Below the pieces are notes generated by a model. That model was given only the letters and a program-made list of their open reading frames with translations. It searched no databases and was not told the origin of the DNA. Positions 46,302 to 57,543 of a stretch of DNA of 64,000 bases are shown piece by piece; positions within the stretch are counted from its first letter, which is position 1, and each line of letters starts with the position of its first letter. This DNA comes from an uncultured virus (IMG/VR IMGVR_UViG_3300027782_000042) (Duplodnaviria; Heunggongvirae; Uroviricota; Caudoviricetes). The position numbers and the translations under genes were made by a program. The DNA is taken from the IMG/VR virus record IMGVR_UViG_3300027782_000042; one strand, written 5' to 3'.

Positions 46302-46345
46302 CTTGATATTGTTTTAAGTATTAAGTATTTTTAAATAAAAAACTT

Positions 46346-46534
46346 ATGTTCATTATAATTAAACACGTAAAAACAAATAATAAAGGAATTTCAGGTAAAA
46401 GACTTCCTGTAATATTATTAAATACCGAAACTGAAGTGTGGGAATTTAACACCATCGAAGAGGCTGAAAAAATGAAAGAGATCTTCCAAACTAATTCTGA
46501 TTCAGGTCACATATACGAAGTAAAAAAAATATAA
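46346..46534 (+). CDS. hypothetical protein
   Basis: ORF track. Confidence 0.7.
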   Translation: MFIIIKHVKTNNKGISGKRLPVILLNTETEVWEFNTIEEAEKMKEIFQTNSDSGHIYEVKKI

Positions 46535-46535
46535 T

Positions 46536-46652
46536 ATGGAAGAAATTTTAGAATTAATTCATAACGAATTTATAGAATCGGAAGATTACTACGTGTTCTT
46601 ACGTAGATTGGATGAAGAACAGGAAAATATTGAAAAAACGATTGTCAATTAA
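46536..46652 (+). CDS. small acidic hypothetical protein (38 aa)
   Basis: read by hand MEEILELIHNEF... Confidence 0.45.
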   Translation: MEEILELIHNEFIESEDYYVFLRRLDEEQENIEKTIVN

Positions 46653-46671
46653 AAAAAATCACATATATTTG
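46642..46671 (+). promoter_or_regulatory. Bacteroidota-type promoter upstream of leader 1
   Basis: TTG...TATATTTG. Confidence 0.55.
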
Positions 46672-46716
46672 TACAAGAATTAAAATTTTTAGAAAAAACA
46701 ATATATTTATAACAAG

Positions 46717-46827
46717 ATGAAAACAACTAATAGACATATGAACATTTGTAACCCGAGCATTCAGTGGTCGTTTAACGTGTATCGTACGCTTAAGTCGCAT
46801 AATAGGGCATTTTTATTTATGAGTTGA
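46717..46827 (+). CDS. attenuator leader peptide 1 (36 aa) for tRNA array 1
   Basis: MKTTNRHMNICNPSIQWSFNVYRTLKSHNRAFLFMS; codons match array-1 anticodons; followed by terminator. Confidence 0.8.
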   Translation: MKTTNRHMNICNPSIQWSFNVYRTLKSHNRAFLFMS

Positions 46828-46856
46828 TAAAGATTAACTAAACATATAAGAAATAT

Positions 46857-46889
46857 AAGACCCTAACTCAAAACAGTTAGGGTTTTTTT
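46857..46889 (+). terminator. attenuator terminator 1
   Basis: AAGACCCTAACT-caaaac-AGTTAGGGTTTTTTT. Confidence 0.85.
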
Positions 46890-46903
46890 ATACCCAAAAA
46901 TTT

Positions 46904-46976
46904 GGTTCCTTAGTATAGTTTGGTAATATCCCGGCTTTGTAACCCGGAGTCATCAGTTCGACCCTGATAGGAACCT
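46904..46976 (+). tRNA. trnT: tRNA-Thr(UGU)
   Basis: cloverleaf, loop TT-TGT-AA, one anticodon-stem mismatch. Confidence 0.8.
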
Positions 46977-46987
46977 CAAAAGAAAAA

Positions 46988-47003
46988 GTTCTTTGACATA
47001 TTG
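46988..47003 (+). promoter_or_regulatory. boxA-like antitermination site
   Basis: GTTCTTTGACATATTG. Confidence 0.6.
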
Positions 47004-47013
47004 GATTCATTAA

Positions 47014-47085
47014 TGTTCCCTCGTCTAATCGGCAGGACACATGGTTTTGGTCCATGGAATCGAGGTTCGAACCCTTGGGGAACAA
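47014..47085 (+). tRNA. trnQ: tRNA-Gln(UUG)
   Basis: cloverleaf, CATGG-TTTTGGT-CCATG. Confidence 0.9.
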
Positions 47086-47091
47086 CAATAA

Positions 47092-47175
47092 GGAAGATGA
47101 ATCACAACGGCTTGTGACCCCGTCTTGAAAACGGGCGGTACCGAAAGGTATTGGGATCGACACCTACTTCTTCCT
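47092..47175 (+). tRNA. trnS: tRNA-Ser(UGA)
   Basis: CCCGT-CTTGAAA-ACGGG, long variable arm. Confidence 0.8.
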
Positions 47176-47181
47176 CTATAA

Positions 47182-47257
47182 CGGGATGTGGACTAATTGA
47201 CTAAGTCGCCACTTTTGGGAAGTGGACATCATCCAGGTTTGAGTCCTGGTATCCCGA
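47182..47257 (+). tRNA. trnP: tRNA-Pro(UGG)
   Basis: CCACT-TTTGGGA-AGTGG. Confidence 0.85.
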
Positions 47258-47262
47258 CTAAT

Positions 47263-47338
47263 GTCTTCGTAGCTCAGTTGGTTTCAGAGCACTCCACTTT
47301 TAATGGAGGGGTCACAGGTTCGAACCCTGTCGGGGACA
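47263..47338 (+). tRNA. trnK: tRNA-Lys(UUU)
   Basis: CTCCA-CTTTTAA-TGGAG. Confidence 0.9.
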
Positions 47339-47346
47339 CAAAAAAA

Positions 47347-47377
47347 TTTGGTAGATTAAAAAAAACCATTAACTTTG
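47347..47377 (+). promoter_or_regulatory. Bacteroidota-type promoter
   Basis: TTTG...TAACTTTG just before ORF 47382. Confidence 0.65.
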
Positions 47378-47381
47378 TACT

Positions 47382-47597
47382 ATGAATAAAGTAGAGAAAA
47401 TTAAAAAAGGACTTCCAAACGGAATGGTTAAGGTTGGGGAAGAATGTGAGAGAGCAATCGTAAGATTGGTTAAACAAGGTAAATCCGAAAACGAGGCAAC
47501 AGAAATTGTTTTGAAACTATTAAAAGATAGTAAACCTTATATTGAACAAGGAATGTACTCTACCACAATTGAAAGTATTAAAATGATAACATCATAA
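47382..47597 (+). CDS. hypothetical protein
   Basis: ORF track; own promoter. Confidence 0.7.
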   Translation: MNKVEKIKKGLPNGMVKVGEECERAIVRLVKQGKSENEATEIVLKLLKDSKPYIEQGMYSTTIESIKMITS

Positions 47598-47599
47598 AC

Positions 47600-47673
47600 G
47601 CACCTTTAGCTCAGATGGTAGTAGCGGTTGTTTTACATACAACAGGTCACAGGTTCGATCCCTGTAGGGTGTA
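47600..47673 (+). tRNA. trnV: tRNA-Val(UAC)
   Basis: GTTGT-TTTACAT-ACAAC. Confidence 0.9.
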
Positions 47674-47677
47674 CAAA

Positions 47678-47799
47678 GGTTGATTGGGGAATGATATAAC
47701 GTTAACGTGTCAGTAGTTCGTAGTTATGTCGGAGTTTTAACTGTCATAGTAACGCCAATCATAAAAGGGGATGTCCACGGAACCATCTTCCCCTTTCCT
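47678..47799 (+). ncRNA. unidentified structured RNA
   Basis: TGATTGG/CCAATCA and AAAGGGGA/TCCCCTTT stems between tRNAs. Confidence 0.4.
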
Positions 47800-47804
47800 G
47801 AACT

Positions 47805-47890
47805 GGGAGAGTTGAGCAATTGGTTGGCTCAGCAGACTGTAAATCTGTCGTCGTGAGACCTTGGGGGTTCGAGTCCCTCCTCTCCCACCA
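47805..47890 (+). tRNA. trnY: tRNA-Tyr(GUA)
   Basis: GCAGA-CTGTAAA-TCTGT, variable arm, encoded CCA. Confidence 0.9.
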
Positions 47891-47896
47891 AAAAAT

Positions 47897-47969
47897 GGAC
47901 AAGTAGCTCAATTGGGAGAGCATCGTACTGTTAATACGAGGGTTGTAGGATCGTACCCTACCTTGTCCG
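47897..47969 (+). tRNA. trnN: tRNA-Asn(GUU)
   Basis: TCGTA-CTGTTAA-TACGA. Confidence 0.85.
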
Positions 47970-47976
47970 CAACAAT

Positions 47977-48049
47977 GCTCACGTAGCTTAATCGGGAAAG
48001 CACCACGCTGATATCGTGGAGAGAATAGGATCGTAACCTATCGTGAGCA
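47977..48049 (+). tRNA. trnI: tRNA-Ile(GAU)
   Basis: CCACG-CTGATAT-CGTGG. Confidence 0.85.
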
Positions 48050-48107
48050 CAAAAAGGGGAATAACTTGTGTGGGTGCCCCAACTACTGCAGGAGTACCAC
48101 ACTCTAT

Positions 48108-48193
48108 GGAAGATAAACCTTGATGGAGATAGGGTCCGCCTGCTAAGCGAGATGTACCCGTAAGGGTATTTGGTTCGATTCCAATGTCTTCCT
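48108..48193 (+). tRNA. trnS: tRNA-Ser(GCU)
   Basis: CGC-CTGCTAA-GCG, long variable arm. Confidence 0.75.
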
Positions 48194-48201
48194 CGATTAA
48201 A

Positions 48202-48285
48202 ATCCGGAAATTTTCCGGATAGGATGACTTTTTTTCCGGATAGACATCTACAATTGAATAATCTATTAGGAAAATTTCCGGATAG
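48202..48285. repeat. TTTCCGGATAG x3 with ATCCGGAAA-T-TTTCCGGAT palindrome
   Basis: direct inspection. Confidence 0.75.
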
Positions 48286-48299
48286 ATATAAAACAACAA

Positions 48300-48367
48300 C
48301 CCGTATGATCAGGGATCAAAGTTGGCTCATATCCGACTTGAGGTTGGTTCAAGTCCAACATACGGGA
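48300..48367 (+). tRNA. trnM: atypical tRNA-Met(CAU) with minimal D-arm
   Basis: CCCGTAT/ATACGGG acceptor, GATC-AGG-GATC D-arm, GTTGG-CTCATAT-CCGAC. Confidence 0.6.
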
Positions 48368-48373
48368 CTATAT

Positions 48374-48447
48374 GGTGTTTGTAGCTCAATCGGGAGAGCG
48401 TCGGTTTGTGAAGCCGAAAGTAGTGGGATCGAAACCCACCATTCACC
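48374..48447 (+). tRNA. trnH: tRNA-His(GUG)
   Basis: G-1, C73, TCGGT-TTGTGAA-GCCGA; two acceptor mismatches. Confidence 0.8.
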
Positions 48448-48449
48448 CA

Positions 48450-48578
48450 AAAGAATTTACAACGGACAAGGCTTAGGCAAGTGAGTTGAGAATGAGTAGT
48501 AGGAGATGTTATCGTTTGGACTACAGAAAGTTTGATACAAGAGATTGGTGGGATGCGAGTGGTTGACCAAAATTCTTT
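48450..48578 (+). ncRNA. unidentified RNA closed by terminal stem
   Basis: AAAGAATTT/AAATTCTTT ends. Confidence 0.35.
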
Positions 48579-48582
48579 AATT

Positions 48583-48655
48583 ACCTTCGTAGTTAAATAG
48601 AATAGAACCTGTGGCTACGGACCACAAGATGTGAGTTTGAGTCTCGCCGAAGGTA
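48583..48655 (+). tRNA. trnR: tRNA-Arg(ACG)
   Basis: TGTGG-CTACGGA-CCACA. Confidence 0.85.
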
Positions 48656-48656
48656 C

Positions 48657-48833
48657 AAAAGATGATAAGAAACGTAGAATGACAGACGTGGAGAGACGTG
48701 TCGTAAGGGTACACACTAAGGAAAGGTATTCAATCTTAATTGTATTGATGTAACAACCCAACTCTCTAATGGTGTGTGAAGCGTCGTAGTGATACGAACC
48801 CCAGATTCCTGATAAAGTCATTTATCATCTTTT
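48657..48833 (+). ncRNA. unidentified structured RNA (~175 nt)
   Basis: AAAAGATGATAA/TTATCATCTTTT closing stem, AATGAC/GTCATT, ACACAC/GTGTGT. Confidence 0.5.
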
Positions 48834-48837
48834 ATTT

Positions 48838-48910
48838 GCCCCCATCGTCCAACTGAACAGGACGTTCCCCTTCTAAGGGAAAGATCGGAGTTTGAATCTC
48901 TGTGGGGGTA
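48838..48910 (+). tRNA. trnR: tRNA-Arg(UCU)
   Basis: TTCCC-CTTCTAA-GGGAA. Confidence 0.85.
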
Positions 48911-48918
48911 CAAAACAC

Positions 48919-48989
48919 ACATGGTACAGACAAGGTGTCGGTCAGGTCTCCAAAACCTCGACGGGTTAGTTCGATTCTAACACCATGTG
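48919..48989 (+). tRNA. trnW: atypical tRNA-Trp(CCA) with minimal D-arm
   Basis: ACATGGT/ACCATGT, GACA-AGG-TGTC D-arm, AGGT-CTCCAAA-ACCT. Confidence 0.7.
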
Positions 48990-49035
48990 CAAAAATTAAT
49001 TTTGCCAGTTAAAAAAAATTTCGTATCTTTACAGT

Positions 49036-49530
49036 ATGAAAGACGCACTACCATATTGTAATACAGGAAAAGCCATTAAAGGTTATGAAGAATCTGCAAT
49101 CGCAAAAAATGAAACCAACGATTGTGTTGTAAGAGCATTTGCATCTTGTTTTGATGTGTCTTACGATTACGCTCACAAATACGTTAGAGAAAATTTTGGT
49201 CGTAGAGATCGTAACGGTACTTATGGTACTGTAGATAAAATGACTAAACTTGCAGAAAATAGAAGTCAAGTAAACTACAAAAAAGTTAAGTGTGTTGGTA
49301 AATTAAACAATTACCGTAGACACACTTTGGAGTACGATGTTAAAGTAAAGGGTGAGAGAGTTAAACGTAAAATGACTGTGGGTACATTTACAAAACAAAA
49401 CCCTATTGGGACATTCTTTATGTTAGTTAGTCGTCACGCTTTCACAATCAAAGATGGTGTGGTAATTGGTAACCACGAGGATTCAACCAAGAAAAAACGT
49501 GTATTACTTCATGCGTTTGAAGTTAAATAA
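49036..49530 (+). CDS. hypothetical protein (NDCVVRA motif)
   Basis: ORF track; host-type promoter directly upstream. Confidence 0.8.
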   Translation: MKDALPYCNTGKAIKGYEESAIAKNETNDCVVRAFASCFDVSYDYAHKYVRENFGRRDRNGTYGTVDKMTKLAENRSQVNYKKVKCVGKLNNYRRHTLEYDVKVKGERVKRKMTVGTFTKQNPIGTFFMLVSRHAFTIKDGVVIGNHEDSTKKKRVLLHAFEVK

Positions 49531-49593
49531 GACGGGAGGCGAGAGTTGAGGGTAGAACCATTAGGATACCTCAACCAAGTCCTCCCTGAAGAA

Positions 49594-49666
49594 GGACAGG
49601 TAGCTCAGTTGGTAGAGCTCAGGATTGAAGATCCTGGAGTCGGGGGTTCGACACCCTCTCTGTCCA
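49594..49666 (+). tRNA. trnF: tRNA-Phe(GAA)
   Basis: CAGGA-TTGAAGA-TCCTG. Confidence 0.9.
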
Positions 49667-49682
49667 CAAATAAAAAGAAATA

Positions 49683-50138
49683 ATGAACAGAGTATTTAGG
49701 ACAATTAATGGTGAAGCGATACCTGATGTGGTTAAACACACCTTAGATGTTTTAAAGGAATGTCCATGGGTTGAGATCCATATTGGAACCGATTCACAAA
49801 ACCATAGAAGAAGTACCGTATATGTTACGGTAATTGCTTACAGGTATGGTAATCGTGGTGTTCACTACATCCTACACAAACAAAAAGTGAAAAAAATAAA
49901 AGACAAGTGGACACGTCTTTGGAATGAAGCCGATTATTCAATTGAGGTTGCCGAATGGTTAACTCAAAAAGTAAAAGTTAAGGTTGAAATAGATTTGGAT
50001 TATAATTGTGAAGATAAACATTACAGTTCAAAACTTGTTTCTCCTGTTGTTGGGTGGGCAACGTCGTTAGGTTATAAAGCAAATATTAAACCTGACAATC
50101 AAATTGCAACAAGAGCGGCAGATCACCACTGCCGTTAA
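49683..50138 (+). CDS. RNase H-like YkuK (DUF458) family protein
   Basis: IHIGTDSQ, RLWNEA, EIDLDYN, IKP..ATRAAD. Confidence 0.85.
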   Translation: MNRVFRTINGEAIPDVVKHTLDVLKECPWVEIHIGTDSQNHRRSTVYVTVIAYRYGNRGVHYILHKQKVKKIKDKWTRLWNEADYSIEVAEWLTQKVKVKVEIDLDYNCEDKHYSSKLVSPVVGWATSLGYKANIKPDNQIATRAADHHCR

Positions 50139-50140
50139 TT

Positions 50141-50213
50141 GCTCAGGTGGTCGAGTGGTTTAGGCCCAGGTCTGCAAAACCTTGGTACGGGGGTTCGAAT
50201 CCCTCCCTGAGCT
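50141..50213 (+). tRNA. trnC: tRNA-Cys(GCA)
   Basis: AGGT-CTGCAAA-ACCT, U73. Confidence 0.85.
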
Positions 50214-50220
50214 CAAAAAT

Positions 50221-50294
50221 GCCTTCGTGGTGGAATTGGTATACACGTCACTCTTAGAAAGTGAATTTTGCAGGTTCGAGTCCTGCCGGAGGTA
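50221..50294 (+). tRNA. trnL: tRNA-Leu(UAG), short variable region
   Basis: TCACT-CTTAGAA-AGTGA, Leu-type D-arm. Confidence 0.8.
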
Positions 50295-50313
50295 CAAACA
50301 AAAAAAAGTGAAG

Positions 50314-50556
50314 ATGGAAAAGTTGATGAAAAATAAAGAAGGAGAATACCTATACGTTTTTGATATAATTCAAAACGGTAAAGTCGCAGGGTCAAATATT
50401 TTGTGGAGTAAGAACTTCATCCAAGTAATGGCGAGTGCAAAAAAAAGATTTGGTAATGTGGATAATGAGTCTTTTAAAAGATTAACCAAAGATGAGTACG
50501 CAACTATGATCGAGGATCAAAAAACAAAAAAACTTGATAAAAAAAGAAAGTGGTGA
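50314..50556 (+). CDS. hypothetical protein
   Basis: start adjusted to MEKLMKN downstream of tRNA-Leu. Confidence 0.65.
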   Translation: MEKLMKNKEGEYLYVFDIIQNGKVAGSNILWSKNFIQVMASAKKRFGNVDNESFKRLTKDEYATMIEDQKTKKLDKKRKW

Positions 50557-50595
50557 TTTAAATCGTATATTGAATATTTATTAATAAAACATTTA

Positions 50596-50928
50596 ATGAA
50601 AAAAGTAATTAGACTAACAGAATCAGATTTAACAAGAATTGTTAAACGTGTAATTAATGAAAATGACAACTATAAAGACAGAAGTATGTATGATCCGTAC
50701 TATAGTGAAGAACTTCAAGAGTTAATTGAAGAGGCGAGAGATTTCCTTGAAAATGAATGTGGATATGACATTGAAGAAATCAATTCAATGGATGAATTTG
50801 ATATTATTGAGGCGTTATATGCTGATAATAATGAAGATTTAGCTGATGAAATTGAAAAATTATTAAACCAAGAAGGTTTTTATAATGCCGATGAGGACGA
50901 AGACTTTGATGATGAAGAATATGCATAA
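50596..50928 (+). CDS. acidic protein, MKKVIRLTESDL propeptide
   Basis: ORF track. Confidence 0.8.
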   Translation: MKKVIRLTESDLTRIVKRVINENDNYKDRSMYDPYYSEELQELIEEARDFLENECGYDIEEINSMDEFDIIEALYADNNEDLADEIEKLLNQEGFYNADEDEDFDDEEYA

Positions 50929-50951
50929 TAAAAAATATAAAAAACATAAAA

Positions 50952-51284
50952 ATGAGAAATAGATTAACAGAAAGAGACTTATCACGTATTGTTAAACGTG
51001 TAATTAATGAAAATAAAGAGGGTATGATTCGTATCCCAAGTATGTATGAGGGTGTTAGAATGGAACTTGGAAAAAGTGCTAACCCACAAGATGTCATTGA
51101 CATGTATAATGAACTTGTTGAAGAGGGGTCTACTCTTGTTGACTATTCTGAGTATGGAACTGAAGGTATGTTTTATAATGAAGAAGGTGATGAGATCCCT
51201 GTTAATGTAATTCTTGATGAACTTAACTACGCAATAGTTGGTGAAGAAGATGAAGATTACGACGATGAAGATGGAAATTATTAA
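50952..51284 (+). CDS. acidic protein, RLTERDL..VINE propeptide
   Basis: ORF track. Confidence 0.8.
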   Translation: MRNRLTERDLSRIVKRVINENKEGMIRIPSMYEGVRMELGKSANPQDVIDMYNELVEEGSTLVDYSEYGTEGMFYNEEGDEIPVNVILDELNYAIVGEEDEDYDDEDGNY

Positions 51285-51344
51285 ATAAAACTTGACACTT
51301 TTAAAAAGTATCATATATTTATAACAAAACAAATAAAAACGCAA

Positions 51345-51419
51345 ATGAAAAATTTACATATCATATTATTAGGCGGATTGGCGATAGCTGAGGATCGTTC
51401 CTATAAGGAGATGGTATGA
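51345..51419 (+). CDS. attenuator leader peptide 2 (24 aa) for tRNA array 2
   Basis: MKNLHIILLGGLAIAEDRSYKEMV; core codons match array-2 anticodons; followed by terminator. Confidence 0.8.
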   Translation: MKNLHIILLGGLAIAEDRSYKEMV

Positions 51420-51443
51420 TAATTTAACACATAATAAATTTTG

Positions 51444-51475
51444 AAAACCCATCTCCAAAAGAGGTGGGTTTTTTT
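51444..51475 (+). terminator. attenuator terminator 2
   Basis: AAAACCCATCTC-caaaa-GAGGTGGGTTTTTTT. Confidence 0.85.
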
Positions 51476-51490
51476 GTTCTTTGAAATTTT
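51476..51490 (+). promoter_or_regulatory. boxA-like site
   Basis: GTTCTTTGAAATTTT directly after terminator 2. Confidence 0.5.
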
Positions 51491-51518
51491 GGAAATTAAA
51501 AAATAAACAGTATCTTTG
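51488..51518 (+). promoter_or_regulatory. Bacteroidota-type promoter
   Basis: TTTG...TATCTTTG. Confidence 0.6.
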
Positions 51519-51522
51519 TTTT

Positions 51523-51813
51523 ATGATAACATTTGATGATATAGAGTTTAAACCACATGGTATTGGTAATGGGGTTCACGGATTACTGTTTTTTCCTGGA
51601 GGATACGGAATCTCGGTTGTAAGATTTAAATCTCCTTTTGGTGGGGGTGGATCATATACTTCAGATGATGATGATTATGAGGTCGCCGTTATTAAAGGAA
51701 CAAAAGATGATTGGGAAATTTCTTATGACACAAAAATAACTAATGATGTTTTGGGTTATCAGACTAAAGAGGATATAAATAAATTAATTACTCAAATTTT
51801 AAGATACTGTTAA
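51523..51813 (+). CDS. hypothetical phage protein
   Basis: start adjusted; FPGGYGISVV..YEVAV..DVLGY. Confidence 0.75.
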   Translation: MITFDDIEFKPHGIGNGVHGLLFFPGGYGISVVRFKSPFGGGGSYTSDDDDYEVAVIKGTKDDWEISYDTKITNDVLGYQTKEDINKLITQILRYC

Positions 51814-51814
51814 A

Positions 51815-51979
51815 ATGAAAACAAAGGAAAAAAATATCGTACATAAGATGATCTTGGGTAGTCAAAGGGTTGCTCAAAAAGAACAAGGTTTTTTTGATGG
51901 TAGATTTGTTACTAGATCTATGGATTTAAAAAATAATTACACAAGGAAAGAAAAACACAAAAAAAGTTTGGTAGATTAG
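51815..51979 (+). CDS. small basic protein, ArfA-like ribosome rescue factor candidate
   Basis: read by hand: ..FDGRFVTRSMDLKNNYTRKEKHKK.. Confidence 0.55.
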   Translation: MKTKEKNIVHKMILGSQRVAQKEQGFFDGRFVTRSMDLKNNYTRKEKHKKSLVD

Positions 51980-51998
51980 AAAAAACCTTGTATATTTG
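51967..51998 (+). promoter_or_regulatory. Bacteroidota-type promoter
   Basis: TTTG...TATATTTG. Confidence 0.6.
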
Positions 51999-52061
51999 TA
52001 AGACAAACAACGGGGGTAGGAAGTGAGAGGTTGGTGTCCTACTCCCGTGAAGACAGAAGAA

Positions 52062-52074
52062 GTTCATTGAAATA
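52062..52074 (+). promoter_or_regulatory. boxA-like site
   Basis: GTTCATTGAAATA after hairpin 52010-52048. Confidence 0.5.
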
Positions 52075-52080
52075 AAAATA

Positions 52081-52165
52081 TAGTGGTTGTAAGAAACGGG
52101 AAACTTGTAAAGTACATTAACCTGTTGGCTCAAGATGGTGAAACAAGAGTGTGAGTCAACTACTA
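52081..52165 (+). ncRNA. unidentified structured RNA
   Basis: TAGTGGTTG/CAACTACTA closing stem. Confidence 0.4.
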
Positions 52166-52177
52166 ACTACATAAATT

Positions 52178-52252
52178 TGTCAGGTGGGCGTAATGAGGGA
52201 CGGTGCCCGAATCCTATAGGTTGCTTATCCGGTTCGAGTCCGGCCCTGACAA
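52178..52252 (+). ncRNA. tRNA-like RNA without canonical anticodon arm (family copy 1)
   Basis: TGTCAGG/CCTGACA acceptor, GGTTCGAGTCC T-arm. Confidence 0.6.
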
Positions 52253-52265
52253 AAAAATTTTAAAT

Positions 52266-52387
52266 AGGTAAGTGGCGGAATTGGCAGACGCTTAGGTTTA
52301 TTCCCCGTAAGAAGTCACCGAGATATAGCTGGGGATGTCTCTTGAAAAGGGAACTATATCGTACAGGTTCGAATCCTGTTTTACCTA
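52266..52387 (+). ncRNA. tRNA scaffold with ~70-nt structured insert replacing the anticodon arm
   Basis: acceptor, TGGCGGAATTGGCAGACGC D-arm, CAGGTTCGAATCCTG T-arm. Confidence 0.6.
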
Positions 52388-52392
52388 CATAT

Positions 52393-52463
52393 TGCGGTTT
52401 AGTGTAATTGGTAGCACACGGGGCTCATAACCCTGAGGCCAGGTTCGAGCCCTGAATCCGCTA
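52393..52463 (+). tRNA. trnfM: initiator tRNA-fMet(CAU)
   Basis: 1:72 mismatch, three G:C pairs in anticodon stem, CTCATAA loop. Confidence 0.8.
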
Positions 52464-52469
52464 CTAAAT

Positions 52470-52550
52470 GCTGACGTACCAGTGGACGCTTATATCGTCT
52501 ATGACTGTAGTGGTAAGTTTAAAACGTTGGTTCGAATCCAACCGTCAGTA
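52470..52550 (+). tRNA. atypical tRNA-like RNA with UAU (Ile) anticodon loop
   Basis: GCTGACG/CGTCAGT acceptor, GGACG-CTTATAT-CGTCT, canonical T-arm, no D-arm. Confidence 0.5.
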
Positions 52551-52556
52551 CAATAA

Positions 52557-52628
52557 GCGGGTATCGTATAATGGTTATTACTCCACACTTCCAATGTGGA
52601 GACGAGTGTTCGATTCATTCTACCCGCA
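52557..52628 (+). tRNA. trnG: tRNA-Gly(UCC)
   Basis: CCACA-CTTCCAA-TGTGG. Confidence 0.9.
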
Positions 52629-52633
52629 CAAAT

Positions 52634-52706
52634 GGGCCTGATGCCGACGGCAGGTCGACTGATTTGCAATCAGATCGTATGGGTTCGATTCCCACAGTGT
52701 CCACCA
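52634..52706 (+). tRNA. trnA: tRNA-Ala(UGC)
   Basis: G3:U70, CTGA-TTTGCAA-TCAG, acceptor bulge, encoded CCA. Confidence 0.7.
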
Positions 52707-52728
52707 AATAAACAATTAATACAAATGA

Positions 52729-52884
52729 ATGATGAGAGAAGTTTTATCAGGAACCTCAGAGTCATCGAAAGTTAAAATGATTAGAGTTAACACGAATACT
52801 GACTGGTTGAAGAAACTGAAAAAAACGCTTAATAGAACGAAGTACAAGTTTAGGGTGGGGAGCGGGTCCCACAAAAAAATTTAA
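52729..52884 (+). CDS. small basic hypothetical protein (51 aa)
   Basis: read by hand MMREVLSG...GSHKKI. Confidence 0.35.
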   Translation: MMREVLSGTSESSKVKMIRVNTNTDWLKKLKKTLNRTKYKFRVGSGSHKKI

Positions 52885-52891
52885 AAAAAGA

Positions 52892-52923
52892 TTTGGTAGA
52901 TCAAAATAGATTACATATCTTTG
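52892..52923 (+). promoter_or_regulatory. Bacteroidota-type promoter
   Basis: TTTG...TATCTTTG. Confidence 0.65.
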
Positions 52924-52943
52924 TAGAACAAAAATAAAGAACT

Positions 52944-53225
52944 ATGACAAACACAGAGACAATTAAAACAGTAGGTTTAAGAATTATAAAGATTGAGGGA
53001 TATGATTATTGTTTGACAGGATACCCAAACAAAAACACAATCCGTGAATGGGAAGACGCATATGAGTTTGAAAGTTTTGTTCAGAATGTCTTAAAGATTG
53101 ATGGTGAATTTGATTCTGAAAGTGGTCAGTTCTACGTGTACTTCAAAACCAAACAAAAGGCTACCTCCTCTTTGAATAAAATTGAAAAACATTTCAAAAA
53201 AGTTGGTGAAATGTTAGGTTTGTAA
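52944..53225 (+). CDS. hypothetical protein
   Basis: ORF track. Confidence 0.75.
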   Translation: MTNTETIKTVGLRIIKIEGYDYCLTGYPNKNTIREWEDAYEFESFVQNVLKIDGEFDSESGQFYVYFKTKQKATSSLNKIEKHFKKVGEMLGL

Positions 53226-53236
53226 TAAAACAAAAT

Positions 53237-53308
53237 GGTCCCATCGACTATCGGTTAGGTCGCCAGGTTTTCATCCTGGAAAGTCGGGTTCGACTCCCGG
53301 TGGGACTA
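53237..53308 (+). tRNA. trnE: tRNA-Glu(UUC)
   Basis: CCAGG-TTTTCAT-CCTGG. Confidence 0.9.
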
Positions 53309-53368
53309 CAATGAAATGAACAACATAGCACACAAGTTGTACCTCTACGGTTTTAAAGTGTGGTTATT

Positions 53369-53444
53369 GGAGATTAGGTCAAATGGTTAAGATGTCGCCC
53401 TGTCACGGCGTTCGGAGCGGGTTCGACTCCCGTAATCTCCGCCA
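53369..53444 (+). tRNA. trnD: tRNA-Asp(GUC)
   Basis: CGCC-CTGTCAC-GGCG, G73, CCA. Confidence 0.9.
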
Positions 53445-53451
53445 AAAGAGA

Positions 53452-53467
53452 GTTCTTTGAAATATTG
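53452..53467 (+). promoter_or_regulatory. boxA-like site
   Basis: GTTCTTTGAAATATTG. Confidence 0.6.
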
Positions 53468-53603
53468 ATAGTGGTTTTCCCCACCTCAACGGATGTCGAC
53501 AATCCAGAGTGGATCAGGAATTCAGCACCCTCTGCCGGGGCCCTGAGAAAACTCAGAAGACGCAGTTAAGATTGGAGCGAGAAGGGTACTCCATCACTAT
53601 CAA
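53465..53603 (+). ncRNA. unidentified structured RNA (~140 nt)
   Basis: TTGATAGTG/CACTATCAA closing stem, GC-rich interior hairpins. Confidence 0.5.
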
Positions 53604-53611
53604 CAATATTT

Positions 53612-53685
53612 AGTCAGGTGGCTAATTGGTAACGCGCCCCGACAGAATGTTGGGGAGATTGCAGGTTCGAGTCCTGTCCTGACTA
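53612..53685 (+). ncRNA. tRNA-like RNA with extended anticodon stem (GAA at tip, no U33)
   Basis: AGTCAGG/CCTGACT acceptor, CCCCGACA-GAA-TGTTGGGG, canonical T-arm. Confidence 0.6.
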
Positions 53686-53775
53686 CAAATATTAAAAAAT
53701 TATGACACCAATATTATTTGTATTATTTGTTTTGTTTATCTTTATGGTAAGAAAGAGAAAATAACTCTTTAAAAT

Positions 53776-53862
53776 GCTCGGATGGTGGAATTGGTAGACA
53801 CGACAGGTTTAAGCTCTGTTGACCAGTGGGTTGTGAGGGTTCGAGTCCCTCTTCGAGTACCA
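53776..53862 (+). tRNA. trnL: tRNA-Leu(UAA)
   Basis: ACAGG-TTTAAGC-TCTGT, long variable arm, CCA. Confidence 0.9.
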
Positions 53863-53869
53863 ATGATAA

Positions 53870-53957
53870 ACTTCAGTACCCGTACCGCCAACGTAGGGTT
53901 AAATTAGATACAATTTCGTGTTACATTTATGTATGTGCGGGGAGTAGAATGCTGAAG
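53870..53957 (+). ncRNA. unidentified long hairpin RNA
   Basis: CTTCAGTA/TGCTGAAG and CCCGTAC/GTGCGGG stems. Confidence 0.4.
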
Positions 53958-53967
53958 AGTCGTTGTT

Positions 53968-54042
53968 TGTCAGGAGTGTAATGAGGCATGGTGCCGAGTC
54001 CTTTATGGTTGCTCATTGTGGGTTCGAATCCCACCCTGACAT
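53968..54042 (+). ncRNA. tRNA-like RNA without canonical anticodon arm (family copy 2)
   Basis: TGTCAGG/CCTGACA acceptor, GTGGGTTCGAATCCCAC T-arm, interior similar to 52178. Confidence 0.6.
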
Positions 54043-54046
54043 CAAA

Positions 54047-54121
54047 GGTCCTATAGCTCAGTTGGTTAGTAGCACTTGACTCATAATCAAGGGGTCGCAG
54101 GTTCGAGTCCTGCTGGGACCA
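54047..54121 (+). tRNA. trnI: tRNA-Ile2(CAU, lysidine type)
   Basis: CTTGA-CTCATAA-TCAAG; GGTCCTA acceptor with C4:G69/C5:G68 as in Ile2 tRNAs. Confidence 0.75.
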
Positions 54122-54165
54122 CAAAATATATTTATTTTTTAGTAAAATATTACTATATTAAAAAT

Positions 54166-54237
54166 GGCCCCATAGTTAAATGGATATAACGAATCTCTTC
54201 TAAAGATTAGTTCCTAGTTCGATTCTAGGTGGGGCTA
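54166..54237 (+). tRNA. trnR: tRNA-Arg(UCU), second copy
   Basis: AATCT-CTTCTAA-AGATT. Confidence 0.9.
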
Positions 54238-54254
54238 CATTTTTTTAAAAAAAT

Positions 54255-54285
54255 TTTGTAGATCTCAGAAATTCCCTTATCTTTG
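54255..54285 (+). promoter_or_regulatory. Bacteroidota-type promoter
   Basis: TTTG...TATCTTTG. Confidence 0.6.
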
Positions 54286-54309
54286 TTTAAACCAAAAAAC
54301 ATTAAGGAT

Positions 54310-55059
54310 ATGACGACAGACATCACAACTCAGGTAAAAAACTACAACGGTAAAAATTCTTTCATCTTGAAAATGAAGGACGCAGTCTCTAAATACGGTT
54401 CTTTGACAGTTAACCAAAGATCTGCGGTTGAGAAGATTTTCAACAATCCTGTTGAGGCAAAATCAGTTGAGATGACTGACGATATGAAAAAAATCGCATC
54501 TTACGAAGGTCCTAACTCTTTCGTTATTGACCTTAAAAACAAACTTAACCAATACGGTAAACTTTCTGAAAAACAGATCTCTACTGGTTTGAAACAAATC
54601 GATAAAGAGGAGAACAAAACTGTTATCCGTAAAGTTAACGTTCCTGCGATTGGAGACACAATCAAAGTTGGTCGAAAAATCGGACAACAACTTAAAGAAC
54701 AATACGGACTTAACTTTAACCCAATCCTTTTGGATATCACTAAAGTTTTGTCTTTCACATCAAAGGCGGTTAAATTCTCAGGTAAAATGACCGTAAAACG
54801 TGGGGATGTTTGTGTGTGTTGTGCTAAGACTCTTACAGACGAGTTCTCAATGTTGACTAAAATGGGTAAGACATGTGCTAAACACATGGGGGTTACATAC
54901 ATTACGGATGTGAATCAAGTTGACAAATTCCGTGAAGAATACCTTAAGAGGGTTGAGGAGATCGGTGAGATGGAATTTTGGGTTCCAAATTCACAAATCA
55001 AGTCTTGGGAAGGTGACACCAAAGTTCTTCAAAAAATGTCACACCTTTGGTTTAAATAA
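54310..55059 (+). CDS. hypothetical protein with N-terminal repeat and DUF6011-like zinc finger
   Basis: Y.G.NSF..KYG.L..Q twice; CVCCAKTLTDEFS..MGKTCAKH. Confidence 0.75.
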   Translation: MTTDITTQVKNYNGKNSFILKMKDAVSKYGSLTVNQRSAVEKIFNNPVEAKSVEMTDDMKKIASYEGPNSFVIDLKNKLNQYGKLSEKQISTGLKQIDKEENKTVIRKVNVPAIGDTIKVGRKIGQQLKEQYGLNFNPILLDITKVLSFTSKAVKFSGKMTVKRGDVCVCCAKTLTDEFSMLTKMGKTCAKHMGVTYITDVNQVDKFREEYLKRVEEIGEMEFWVPNSQIKSWEGDTKVLQKMSHLWFK

Positions 55060-55259
55060 AAAGAATGTGGGGTTTGTTCATTATGGGACAGACCCCGCTC
55101 ATTTGGTATAGTTTTGGGTATTTTATTTATTATTTATTAAAAAAAACGTTATGGAAATTATTATCGGAATTTCAATCCCTTTTATTTTGGCGGGAATTGT
55201 TTTATTGTCTTATATGATATATAACAAAAAATAAAAAAGGGACCTAAGTCCCTTCAATT

Positions 55260-55856
55260 TTATTTAATATCTGTTGATTTAATTAATGTGTAACTAAATG
55301 AGTTACCATGTATTTCTTTGGCTTTTCTACAAATCTTCATGAACTCCTCAAAATCCGCAGATTTTTTAAATACTTGACAACCTTCAGACCAATTCTCAAC
55401 ATATGTTGAATCGGCACCTGCTTTATGAATGTTAATACCATAAACACCTTCAGTAATTTTTTTCTCATCATAAATTAGATCTTTATTGGCATCACGATAA
55501 ACCTTAACGTTTTTCGCTTGACCTAAAGCTTCGTATTTACCTTGATGTAATCTAATTGTGTGAGATCCTCTATATTGACCCTCAACCAATCTTGCAACAC
55601 CATCTTTATTATGGTATTCCATAACACCTTTTTTACCTGGATCTGTAGTTGCTGGCCAAATATGGAATTTCCATTGACCGTCTACTTTATAGGATAATGT
55701 TAAATAATCATCAAAAACATTAGTAACTTTTTGTCCTGTAGCGGCATTTCTGATCCCAATGATATTAACATCGTAACTTTTGTTTGATGTATCTTCAAAC
55801 CAAACATAACCTTTGGATTTTACTGCGGTTTCAACCTGTTCTCTTGTATAACTCAT
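55260..55856 (-). CDS. L,D-transpeptidase-like (YkuD-type His/Cys) protein
   Basis: GINIH..WSEGCQV. Confidence 0.6.
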   Translation of the reverse strand: MSYTREQVETAVKSKGYVWFEDTSNKSYDVNIIGIRNAATGQKVTNVFDDYLTLSYKVDGQWKFHIWPATTDPGKKGVMEYHNKDGVARLVEGQYRGSHTIRLHQGKYEALGQAKNVKVYRDANKDLIYDEKKITEGVYGINIHKAGADSTYVENWSEGCQVFKKSADFEEFMKICRKAKEIHGNSFSYTLIKSTDIK

Positions 55857-55923
55857 AATAATTAATTTTCATTATAAATATATCTCACTTTGAAAAGTAA
55901 AGAGTTAGGACATATTTATTGAT

Positions 55924-57543
55924 ATGAAATATCGTTTAAGAATAAAAATAACATTAGTTATCGCCGCTTTACTAATGATTGCATTTATGTGTGTTAAAAT
56001 TGCGGTTCTTATTGGGTTACGAGAATCTACAGAAACAACTAGATGGCTAGAATTTTTTGGGGTTATTTCTCTCATCCCTATATCTGCGTTATTAATTAAA
56101 GACTTTATCAATTCCACTAAAGATACTGTATCTAAAGAATCGGTGGATAAATTGGTAGAATTAGAACATTTCTTAAATTCTTCTTCCATCATATCTAAAG
56201 CTGATGCAAAAGGAAAGATTACATACGTTAATCAAAAATTTACCGAAATCTCAGGTTATTCATTAGAAGATGTTCTTGGTAAAGACCACAATATTGTAAA
56301 TTCTGGAACACACCCAAAAGAGTTTTGGTCTAATATGTATAAAACTGTTGTTGTGAATAAGGGTCTTTGGAATGAGGTTTGTGTCAATAGGGCAAAAGAT
56401 GGAAGTCTTTATTATGTGGATACTTTTATTAAATGTAGTTTTGATGAAAACGGTAAATTGTTAGAGTTTATGTCAATTCGTCAAGACTTAACTTCTTTAA
56501 AAAAGACTGAACAAGAAATATCAAATAGAATGAATGCGATTAACAGATCAAATGCCGTTATTGAATTTGATTTAGATGGTAACATAAAATTTGCAAATGA
56601 TTTATTTTTAAGTACTTTAGGTTATGATTCGCACGATGAACTTGTTGGAAAACATCATAGTATATTTGTTGAAGATGTGGTAAAAGACTCTGAAGAATAT
56701 TCAAACTTTTGGAAAACTTTAAAAGGTGGTCAATTCTTTATGGGTGAAATCATTAGAAAGAAAAAAAACGGATCTTTAATTTATCTCCAAGCGACATATA
56801 ACCCCATCATAGGAACCGATGGGAAACCATATAGAGTAATGAAAATCGCCACTGACATCACCCAAAGTATTAATCAACAAATGGAGATTGAAAAGAAAAA
56901 TACCTATTTAGAGCATGCCGCAAAGATATTAAGACACGATATGCACTCTGGTATTAATACATATATGCCAAGAGGATTAAGCTCTTTAGAACGAAGATTA
57001 ACTCCTGAAGATATAAAAAATTTAAAAATAGAATCCCCACTTAGAATGATTAAAGAAGGTTTAAAACATTCTCAAAAAGTATATAAAGGGGTTTACGAAT
57101 TTACCAATTTGGTTAAAAAAGATGTTGTTTTAAATAAAGCGGAATGTGATTTAAAATTAATCCTATCTGATTATCTATCATCTACTGCATATATTAGTCA
57201 AGTTATTATAGATGAGTTACCAACTATTGAGGTAAACGAAGCACTATTTTGTACTGCGGTTGATAACTTGATTAGAAACGGTTTAAAGTATAATGATTCG
57301 GATTCTAAATTTGTTAAAATAACTTCAGACGAGAATTATGTTTACATTCAAGATAATGGTAGAGGAATCACACAAGAAGATTTTGACCACCTATGTAAAC
57401 CATATACAAGAAAAGAAGGACAAAAAGAATCTGGTACTGGTTTGGGATTAAATATTTGCGTTGCTATTTTAGAAGAACACGGGTTTAATATTACCTGTGA
57501 GAAAAATGAAATAGGAACAAAAATAAAAATAAAAATAAAATAA
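55924..57543 (+). CDS. membrane-bound PAS-PAS sensor histidine kinase
   Basis: 2 TM helices, two PAS/PAC, ILRHDM H-box, NLIRNGLKY, DNGRGI, GTGLGL. Confidence 0.9.
   Translation: MKYRLRIKITLVIAALLMIAFMCVKIAVLIGLRESTETTRWLEFFGVISLIPISALLIKDFINSTKDTVSKESVDKLVELEHFLNSSSIISKADAKGKITYVNQKFTEISGYSLEDVLGKDHNIVNSGTHPKEFWSNMYKTVVVNKGLWNEVCVNRAKDGSLYYVDTFIKCSFDENGKLLEFMSIRQDLTSLKKTEQEISNRMNAINRSNAVIEFDLDGNIKFANDLFLSTLGYDSHDELVGKHHSIFVEDVVKDSEEYSNFWKTLKGGQFFMGEIIRKKKNGSLIYLQATYNPIIGTDGKPYRVMKIATDITQSINQQMEIEKKNTYLEHAAKILRHDMHSGINTYMPRGLSSLERRLTPEDIKNLKIESPLRMIKEGLKHSQKVYKGVYEFTNLVKKDVVLNKAECDLKLILSDYLSSTAYISQVIIDELPTIEVNEALFCTAVDNLIRNGLKYNDSDSKFVKITSDENYVYIQDNGRGITQEDFDHLCKPYTRKEGQKESGTGLGLNICVAILEEHGFNITCEKNEIGTKIKIKIK

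Follow-up and report, generated by a model that had tools for sequence, protein, structure and literature searches.

The paradigm of leader-peptide attenuation is provided by trpL and hisL, and multivalent attenuators of this kind are found in the enterobacterial ilvGMEDA and thr leaders. T-box riboswitches, located in the leaders of aminoacyl-tRNA synthetase and amino-acid genes, bind uncharged transfer RNA (tRNA) directly; they span about 200–300 nucleotides (nt), possess a specifier loop and need no open reading frame (ORF). A further point of reference is the boxA-type motif of boxA/Nus antitermination in ribosomal RNA (rRNA) operons and of the phage lambda nut site, which lies early in a long untranslated and structured transcript. 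To our knowledge, the regulation of phage tRNA arrays is essentially undescribed. Here we analyse leader 2, a short element at positions 51345–51490 of a 64,000-nt stretch of DNA from an uncultured virus (IMGVR_UViG_3300027782_000042); this whole stretch is referred to as the window. Leader 2 lies between two tRNA arrays, and from its sequence and a model of ribosome stalling we think it rather likely to act as a multivalent transcription attenuator of the leader-peptide type, in which a translating ribosome senses the supply of the tRNAs that belong to the second array.

The role of phage tRNAs is actively debated, with papers on codon compensation and on how phages evade defences aimed at tRNAs, among them PARIS and retrons (PMC10264068, PMC11464382, PMC11555353). 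The nearest regulated tRNA array that we found is the trn operon of Anabaena sp. PCC 7120, in which 26 tRNA genes are under the repressor TrcR (PMC10272220); a word search of the paper's text gave zero occurrences of leader, attenuat-, stall, terminator and small ORF. A full-text literature search, assessed from titles and the beginnings of abstracts, found no published account of a leader-peptide attenuator before tRNA genes.

Architecture of leader 2

Leader 2 combines a promoter (51292–51321), a 24-codon ORF (51345–51419) and a 13-base-pair (bp) intrinsic terminator (51443–51473), all on the + strand, in one module. The promoter feature (51292–51327) comprises TTGACA (51292–51297), a 16-nt spacer and TATATTTA, and it ends in the 14-mer TATATTTATAACAA (51314–51327). 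TTGACA-16-TATATT (51292–51319) is both sigma-70-like and Bacteroidota-like, represents the best + strand match in the region (11/12) and is kept across 19 distinct sequences. The spacer also contains an inverted repeat, ACTTTT-A-AAAAGT (51297–51309), which nearly all of the 19 distinct homologs retain, slightly altered, as ACTTTT-N-AAAAGT (it is degenerate in L036) and could be the operator for a regulator.

Leader ORF 2 starts with ATG at 51345 and has 24 codons followed by TGA (51417–51419). The encoded peptide, MKNLHIILLGGLAIAEDRSYKEMV, matches no Pfam and no PHROG family at E-values up to 1, and an Rfam search of the leader region gave no match to any leader family. Codons 7–17 (51363–51395) read ATA TTA TTA GGC GGA TTG GCG ATA GCT GAG GAT, as stated in the initial annotation, and thus form an uninterrupted run of Ile-ATA, Leu-TTR, Gly, Ala, Glu and Asp codons, which we refer to as the sensor run.

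The transcript contains four segments with alternative pairing partners. Region 1 (51357–51370) is the 5′ strand of a predicted leader hairpin, and a ribosome that stalls in the sensor run would cover it. Region 2 (51407–51421) takes in the end of the ORF with its stop codon, and its segment GGAGATGG (51407–51414) can pair with either region 1 or region 3. Regions 3 and 4 (51443–51475) constitute the terminator, in which 51443–51455 pairs with 51461–51473 and the U-tract occupies 51469–51475; region 3 corresponds to CCATCTCC (51449–51456). With 13 pairs, a U7 tract and −17.1 kcal/mol, the terminator has the longest stem among eight terminator-like sites in 45000–56000. Across homologs, pairing is intact in 96% of its alignment cells, compensatory changes occur at two pairs and none of 500 shuffles reaches the observed score.

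The minimum free energy (MFE) fold of the leader consists of a long hairpin that joins codons 5–9 to the end of the ORF, followed by the terminator (z-score −3.4; none of 200 shuffles folds as well). In the 1:2 hairpin of this fold, 51359–51370 pairs with 51410–51421, and 96% of cells are paired in relatives. The register given by RNAalifold pairs 51357–51364 with 51411–51418 (8 pairs), is paired in 19 of 19 sequences and shows one compensatory change. We rejected the 12-bp MFE register, which shows no two-sided changes and scores no better than shuffles; the 8-bp RNAalifold register fits better.

Codon content of leader 2 and the tRNA arrays

With default settings, ARAGORN identifies 22 tRNA genes in two blocks, 46904–50295 and 52393–54238. 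At a relaxed threshold, array 1 represents 17 codon families: Thr, Gln, Ser-TCN, Pro, Lys, Val, Tyr, Asn, Ile-ATY, Ser-AGY, His, Arg-CGN, Arg-AGR, Trp, Phe, Cys and Leu-CTN. Array 2 (52177–54238, + strand) is composed of an odd tRNA-like gene, a tRNA with an insert, Met, Ile(UAU), Gly(UCC), Ala(UGC), Glu, Asp, Phe, Leu(UAA), Ile(UAU), Met and Arg(UCU). According to the relaxed search, it adds Met, Ile(UAU), Gly, Glu, Asp and Leu(UAA) together with second copies of Phe and Arg(UCU), and its tRNA-Ala(UGC) (52634–52705) was assigned via homology to ARAGORN-called genes of relatives (four-sequence alignment, 90% mean column identity). Jointly, the two arrays represent all 24 codon families distinguished in our analysis.

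Codons 7–17 of leader 2 had been described as drawn only from array-2 families, and our assignment confirms this, with all of the families used being unique to array 2. The initial annotation had also taken the ATA codons to be read by an Ile2 tRNA that depends on TilS, which is probably wrong. Since array 2 carries two tRNA-Ile(UAU)-type genes (52470–52551 and 53968–54043; relaxed ARAGORN), a type that is called by default ARAGORN in relatives, decoding of ATA need not depend on lysidine-modified Ile2.

To compare the run with chance, we used a codon-usage model built from the 46 long ORFs of the window, in which array-2-unique families account for 34% of codons. With this usage, the probability that 23 codons include a run of at least 11 array-2-unique ones is P = 6.9e-5. 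None of 12,305 real 23-codon gene segments contains such a run, the longest being 10. Having at least 14 of 23 codons from the array-2-unique set has P = 0.008, and coverage of all seven array-2-unique families, as found in leader 2, has P = 0.028. Among 260 ATG-started small ORFs of 20–45 codons in the six frames of the window, only leader ORF 2 has a run of 8 or more. Mononucleotide shuffles of ORF 2 in which the frame stays open reach a run of at least 11 in 1 of 48,217 cases (P = 2e-5), and G-richness alone therefore fails to explain the run.

Conservation of the module

The window is part of a large, AT-rich lake phage whose promoters are of the Bacteroidota type, TTTG...TAnnTTTG. A blastn comparison of 50900–53300 with 50,697 phage records returned tRNA-sized matches only, each covering at most 4% of the query, and no annotated relative. 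The closest complete relative among the sequences compared is G002, a 304-kb viral record; G001 is the same virus at 100% identity and carries no information on conservation. Homologous loci were reached via the upstream gene, with relatives of the ORF at 50952–51284 as synteny anchor. A 22-mer scan yielded 23 viral contigs, a promoter-plus-start pattern yielded more, and a metagenome scan yielded at least 120 loci, of which 32 of those listed have a small ORF plus terminator. Counts of leader variants refer throughout to the matches listed in the promoter-pattern and metagenome scans.

By sequence comparison, the leader-2 module is conserved in at least 19 viral and at least 30 further metagenomic variants. 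All 20 sequences of the first set keep leader ORF 2 open over 24 codons, and 31 of the 32 listed metagenomic loci with small ORF and terminator are of the leader-2 (MKNLH) type, with 22–25 codons; the remaining locus, L329, has a different ORF. The peptide is not conserved like a protein, since its variable sites are distributed 10/14/14 over codon positions 1/2/3 and residues change in 15 of 23 codon columns. As judged from these variants, what is conserved is the codon set and not the peptide. All seven array-2-unique families are represented in 14 of the 20 listed viral nucleotide variants and six of seven in the other 6, which lack only the internal Met. The run is at least 7 codons long in 19 of these 20 variants (P = 0.006 each), the exception being L042, and the diverged cores LLGGLAIAED, SLRGLAEAED, TLLGADLEAGD and LLIGGDLAEA (22-codon form) have runs of 7–11.

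Alternative pairing and ribosome position

GGAGATGG is an exact 8-bp complement of CCATCTCC, which lies inside the 5′ arm of the terminator and includes the first loop base. The pairing and its coordinates had been given correctly, as had the distance of 11 nt between the end of the codon run and GGAGATGG. An exact 8-mer complement is found in 54 of 20,000 dinucleotide shuffles of 51345–51442, and the region 2/3 duplex has an energy of −15.1 kcal/mol, compared with −8.3 ± 2.0 kcal/mol in shuffles (P = 0.004). The three alternative helices of the window are similar in stability, with −16.8, −13.9 and −17.1 kcal/mol.

Homologous leaders contain compensatory changes in this pairing. L053 has a compensatory antiterminator pair, GAAGATGG/CCATCTTC, and the 22-codon clade has GGAGAGGG/CCCTCTCC, a change from U-A to G-C relative to the window. 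L064 and L081 differ from each other as AGGAGGG/CCCTCC and AAGAGGG/CCCTCT, with G replaced by A in region 2 and C replaced by T at the terminator loop base (G-C to A-U). Across 26 distinct region 2/region 3 combinations, the mean energy of a leader's own pair is −13.25 kcal/mol (range −17.3 to −7.8), compared with −10.8 kcal/mol for mismatched pairs; only 7 of 50,000 permutations do as well as the own pairs, and an uninterrupted helix of at least 7 bp is present in 20 of the 26. The region 2/3 pairing is thus conserved with compensatory changes in the variants aligned, and the more diverged ones settle the matter. Alignment to homologous leaders, suggested in the initial annotation as a check, shows that this pairing (26 combinations) and the codon set (6–7 of 7 families in 20 of 20 viral variants) are both kept.

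We modelled stalling by masking a 30-nt ribosome footprint and folding the nascent RNA to 51460, which is a thermodynamic sketch and not a kinetic simulation. In this model the antiterminator is the MFE structure for A-site codons 3–17 and is impossible from codon 19 on, because region 2 is then covered by the ribosome. The array-2 codon run ends at codon 17, the last stall position that would permit the antiterminator, and the variable array-1-type codons 18–21 sit where a stall would favour termination.

Leader 1, a paralog of leader 2

A second leader, leader 1 (46702–46889, + strand), precedes array 1. It carries the 14-mer TATATTTATAACAA at 46702, a 36-codon ORF (46717–46827) and a terminator at about 46858–46889, and tRNA-Thr starts at 46904, 14 nt past the U-tract. 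The window holds exactly two copies of the 14-mer (46702 and 51314), as does each of G002, G003 and G004, and the copies are always at the two leaders.

The 35 non-start codons of leader 1 cover 17 of 17 array-1 families (P = 7.6e-5), which none of 11,753 real gene segments achieves; composition-matched shuffles reach 17 families with P = 0.0027. Only four codons of leader 1 are array-2-unique (P = 0.002). Coverage is 16–17 of 17 families in all 19 listed leader-1 nucleotide variants, and Cys, Val and Arg-CGN codons occur at different positions between clades, with in-frame indels. In all 22 listed variants, a tRNA gene follows leader 1 within a few tens of nucleotides and no promoter lies between.

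Sequence downstream of the terminator

A boxA-like motif, GTTCTTTGAAATTTTGG (51476–51492, + strand), follows the terminator. Its first ten nucleotides, GTTCTTTGAA (51476–51485), directly adjoin the U-tract (51469–51475), as had been noted from the sequence. Relatives carry the 17-mer GTTCTTTGACATATTGG, from which the window copy differs at 2 positions. Further copies in the tRNA region are situated at 46988–47004 (exact GTTCTTTGACATATTGG) and 53452–53468, both inside the arrays, and relatives have a boxA-like motif just before tRNA-Leu(UAA). Overall enrichment of GTTCTTTGA in the window is not significant (36 matches at up to one mismatch, compared with 28 ± 5).

At least 122 stretches, most of them from Bacteroidota genomes (such as Pedobacter, Mucilaginibacter and Chitinophagaceae), contain the 17-mer. 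All 8 loci sampled have it in the 16S-23S spacer, downstream of the spacer tRNAs and 64–214 nt before 23S, which we take to be where a spacer boxA is expected. The label boxA-like is well founded because of this location. Identity with a 16S-leader boxA was ruled out, as a 16S start lies within 700 nt downstream in 0 of 110 loci. The phage motif is probably a hijacked boxA or processing signal; the 17-mer of rRNA operons could also belong to the 23S processing stem. Its distribution also hints at Bacteroidota as the host phylum.

The initial annotation had listed promoters at 51488, 51967 and 52892 as a caveat, and all three are present as TTTG...TAnnTTTG. The first (51488–51518, + strand; TTTG, 19 nt, TAtcTTTG) is located directly past the terminator and would feed the ORFs at 51524–51813 and 51815–51979; the second spans 51967–51998. 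The caveat is a general one, with a promoter-like site past the terminator in 15 of 19 loci. At the other 4 of the 19 leader-2 loci, tRNA-Leu(UAA) begins 28–31 nt past the U-tract and no promoter lies between.

Proposed mechanism and alternative explanations

In the mechanism we propose, the leader's own promoter would start a transcript of about 150 nt, and a ribosome would translate its 24-codon ORF. With smooth decoding, the ribosome would arrive at the last codons and the stop codon (51407–51419) and cover region 2, the terminator (51443–51473) would form and transcription would end. A stall in codons 7–17 would cover region 1 and leave region 2 free, in which case GGAGATGG would pair with CCATCTCC and no terminator would form. 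A polymerase that reads through would at once transcribe the boxA-like motif, apparently copied from the rRNA spacer of the host phylum, and continue towards the tRNA genes. Stalling would thus control read-through, and the signal would be the supply of tRNAs (e.g., when host tRNAs are cleaved or the host is shut off), not that of amino acids. Leader 1, for array 1, and leader 2, for array 2, would divide the 24 codon families between them. Computationally, the attenuator reading is supported by the open ORF, the codon set, the pairing, the stall geometry and the paralogous leader 1 with its mirror-image codon set.

A number of observations weigh against this mechanism, several of them concerning the codons. 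Some listed variants have short runs (6 in L042, 3 in LLGGTEADT and 5 in LLGGSVIADED). Most families are represented in leader 2 by one or two codons only, unlike the tandem runs of classical attenuators. The split of families between the leaders is not clean, because codons 2–6 of leader 2 also use array-1 families. Leader codons track the content of the arrays weakly. All four leaders without CGN codons have arrays without tRNA-Arg(ACG), but so do two of the six leaders with CGN. G005 and G006 keep CGN without a detected tRNA-Arg(ACG), and in G010 about half of array 1 is lost (8 tRNAs left) and leader 1 still covers 16 families. For these comparisons we used ARAGORN on the relatives' regions, as a search for tRNA-Arg by DNA similarity was too insensitive and missed Arg(UCU) of G004.

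The pairing, too, has its weak points. In the first 19-sequence alignment, the 8 antiterminator pairs are 91.4% paired, compared with 90.6% in shuffled columns (67 of 500). The antiterminator is no better than shuffles there because both strands are conserved, and two clades have an internal mismatch. Among the 26 region 2/3 combinations, 6 have only 4–6 uninterrupted pairs, e.g., the L022 type (U.U mismatch) and L041, and the permutation test of the own-pair energy ignores shared ancestry. A consistent antiterminator was sought in leader 1 and not found, the pairing being weak and its position shifting between clades.

A further difficulty is the position of the downstream promoters. An attenuator would be expected to have no promoter between itself and the regulated genes; in the window, the promoters at 51488 and 51967 and two ORFs precede the tRNAs, and a promoter-like site (TTG...TAnnTTTG) lies 11–40 nt past the terminator in the window and in 14 of 18 other distinct loci. 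Since a promoter follows the terminator, the downstream genes need no read-through, and the module is conserved nonetheless. In the window, the attenuator could at most add to transcription from the 51488 and 51967 promoters. Four freshwater metatranscriptomes, consisting of contigs, give almost no coverage of the two leaders (0.36 in the 51226–51482 bin in one run, X4, and 0 elsewhere), many of the pieces being tRNA look-alikes of other organisms.

An alternative explanation is an autonomous small gene, in which promoter, small ORF or structured RNA, and terminator would give rise to a small RNA of about 150 nt or a micro-protein acting in trans, with proximity to the tRNAs being a matter of synteny. 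Leader 2 does have its own strong promoter, a strong terminator and a fold more stable than that of shuffles, and 15 of 19 loci have a separate promoter past a terminator that belongs to a conserved module. Liberated attenuator RNAs and small stable RNAs are known from phage tRNA regions, such as the T4 species 1 and 2 RNAs, and provide a precedent. Yet neither purifying selection on residues nor a known family (Pfam, PHROG or Rfam) was found for ORF 2, and its length and codon set are kept while its peptide shows no protein-like constraint. An autonomous gene also leaves unexplained the match of both leaders to their arrays, the covariation of the ORF end with the terminator loop base and the direct junction with tRNA genes at some loci. 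We consider this explanation unlikely, though not negligible.

It is also conceivable that translation of the leader is sensed but has a different output, with the position of the ribosome setting RNA stability, processing or Rho access, or that a constant fraction of polymerases reads through a fixed attenuator or insulator placed before boxA loading. Such a function would suit the position of the terminator, which no promoter separates from the tRNAs downstream in leader 1 (22 of 22) and in 4 of 19 leader-2 loci; it would also suit the boxA directly past the U-tract and the lack of a consistent antiterminator in leader 1. However, the covarying region 2/3 pairing of leader 2 and its stall geometry fit a classical switch, and a fixed attenuator would need no codon-matched ORF; these alternatives therefore appear quite improbable to us. 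Finally, ORF 2 could be spurious, lying in a G-rich structured spacer and happening to use GNN, TTR and ATA codons, with the 8-mer complement a coincidence. Our hypothesis was formed post hoc on the same sequence, purine-rich and pyrimidine-rich segments pair easily, and promoter-like matches show no excess over shuffles in the region (46 compared with 39.1 ± 7.1). Against this, the codon and pairing tests give P values from 1e-3 to 2e-5, and the codon match is seen again in diverged clades as well as in leader 1, the paralog, so that we give chance hardly any credence.

Taking both leaders together, attenuation may be part of a broader strategy, in which demand governs the tRNA arrays of large Bacteroidota phages. 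The two paralogous leader peptides would serve as "codon samplers", expressed from a promoter type that the genome reserves for them; they would split the 24 codon families, and each would open its own array when any of its tRNAs becomes limiting (e.g., during host shut-off or through anticodon nucleases), with a hijacked rRNA-spacer boxA committing polymerase to the whole untranslated array. We see the case for and against this wider proposal as evenly balanced. If it is true, the phage gauges decoding capacity directly and responds by tRNA synthesis, and leader-peptide attenuation extends to tRNA genes, to Bacteroidota and to viruses. The "tRNA depletion" hypothesis would then become testable with a simple reporter, and the leaders would represent a natural sensor of tRNA supply spanning many codon families.

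Other features of the tRNA region

Two tandem paralogous ORFs of 110 amino acids with acidic tails (50596–50928 and 50952–51284) are situated between the arrays. Both share the N-terminal motif L-T/S-E-x-D-L-x-R-I-V-K-R-V-I-N-E-N.

Directly after the 51967 promoter, about 250 nt (52000–52265) are relatively G+C-rich and end in a tRNA-like T-arm and acceptor; this stretch has no Rfam match. Within it, relaxed ARAGORN reports a "tRNA-???" at 52177–52253, and the corresponding position in relatives holds a "tRNA-???" of 93 nt. In run X2, contigs of the RNA library match 51853–52213 with 0–1 differences. The adjacent 122-nt tRNA-like gene (52266–52388) has an apparent insert and scores 32.7 bits with the Rfam tRNA model over 52266–52387; ARAGORN proposes a 37-nt intron when introns are allowed.

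In array 1, a 180-nt gap (48195–48374) separates tRNA-Ser(GCU) from tRNA-His, and G003, G004 and G005 have a tRNA-Met(CAU) there. Leader 1 has a conserved internal ATG that such a gene would match. In run X1, one contig of the RNA library skips 48194–48300. Suppressor-type tRNAs are called by relaxed ARAGORN in the arrays of relatives, with anticodon CTA in G002 and G004 and TTA in G010 and G011 (L169, 12544–12635; L171, reverse strand; L176, 1922–1995; L177, 5619–5702), and none is called in the window.

Comparison with known systems

The trn operon of Anabaena (PMC10272220) resembles the phage arrays in being an accessory set of tRNA genes whose expression is held low until particular conditions turn it on, but control is exerted there by a protein repressor.

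With T-box riboswitches, leader 2 shares terminator and antiterminator alternatives that would report tRNA status. Whereas a T-box binds the tRNA itself without an ORF, the mechanism modelled here is ORF-based, and none of the 33 Rfam hits at E-values up to 1 in 45000–56000 is a T-box covariance-model match. As in rRNA operons, a boxA-type motif is found early in a long untranslated, structured transcript, and the phage 17-mer is identical to the motif of Bacteroidota 16S-23S spacers. In contrast to rRNA operons and lambda nut sites, it is placed inside phage tRNA arrays and directly past the attenuator, and binding of NusB/S10 is putative.

The closest resemblance is to the enterobacterial attenuators. 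Like these, leader 2 has a short ORF whose regulatory codons match the regulated function and would sense more than one amino-acid family, and it has a 1:2 hairpin, a 2:3 antiterminator and a 3:4 intrinsic terminator, with the stop codon inside region 2. Unlike these, it would regulate phage tRNAs instead of biosynthetic enzymes, in a host phylum that is probably Bacteroidota, and it uses seven families at 1–3 codons each instead of tandem repeats. Here, moreover, two paralogous leaders would split the code between two arrays, and a boxA motif lies past the terminator.

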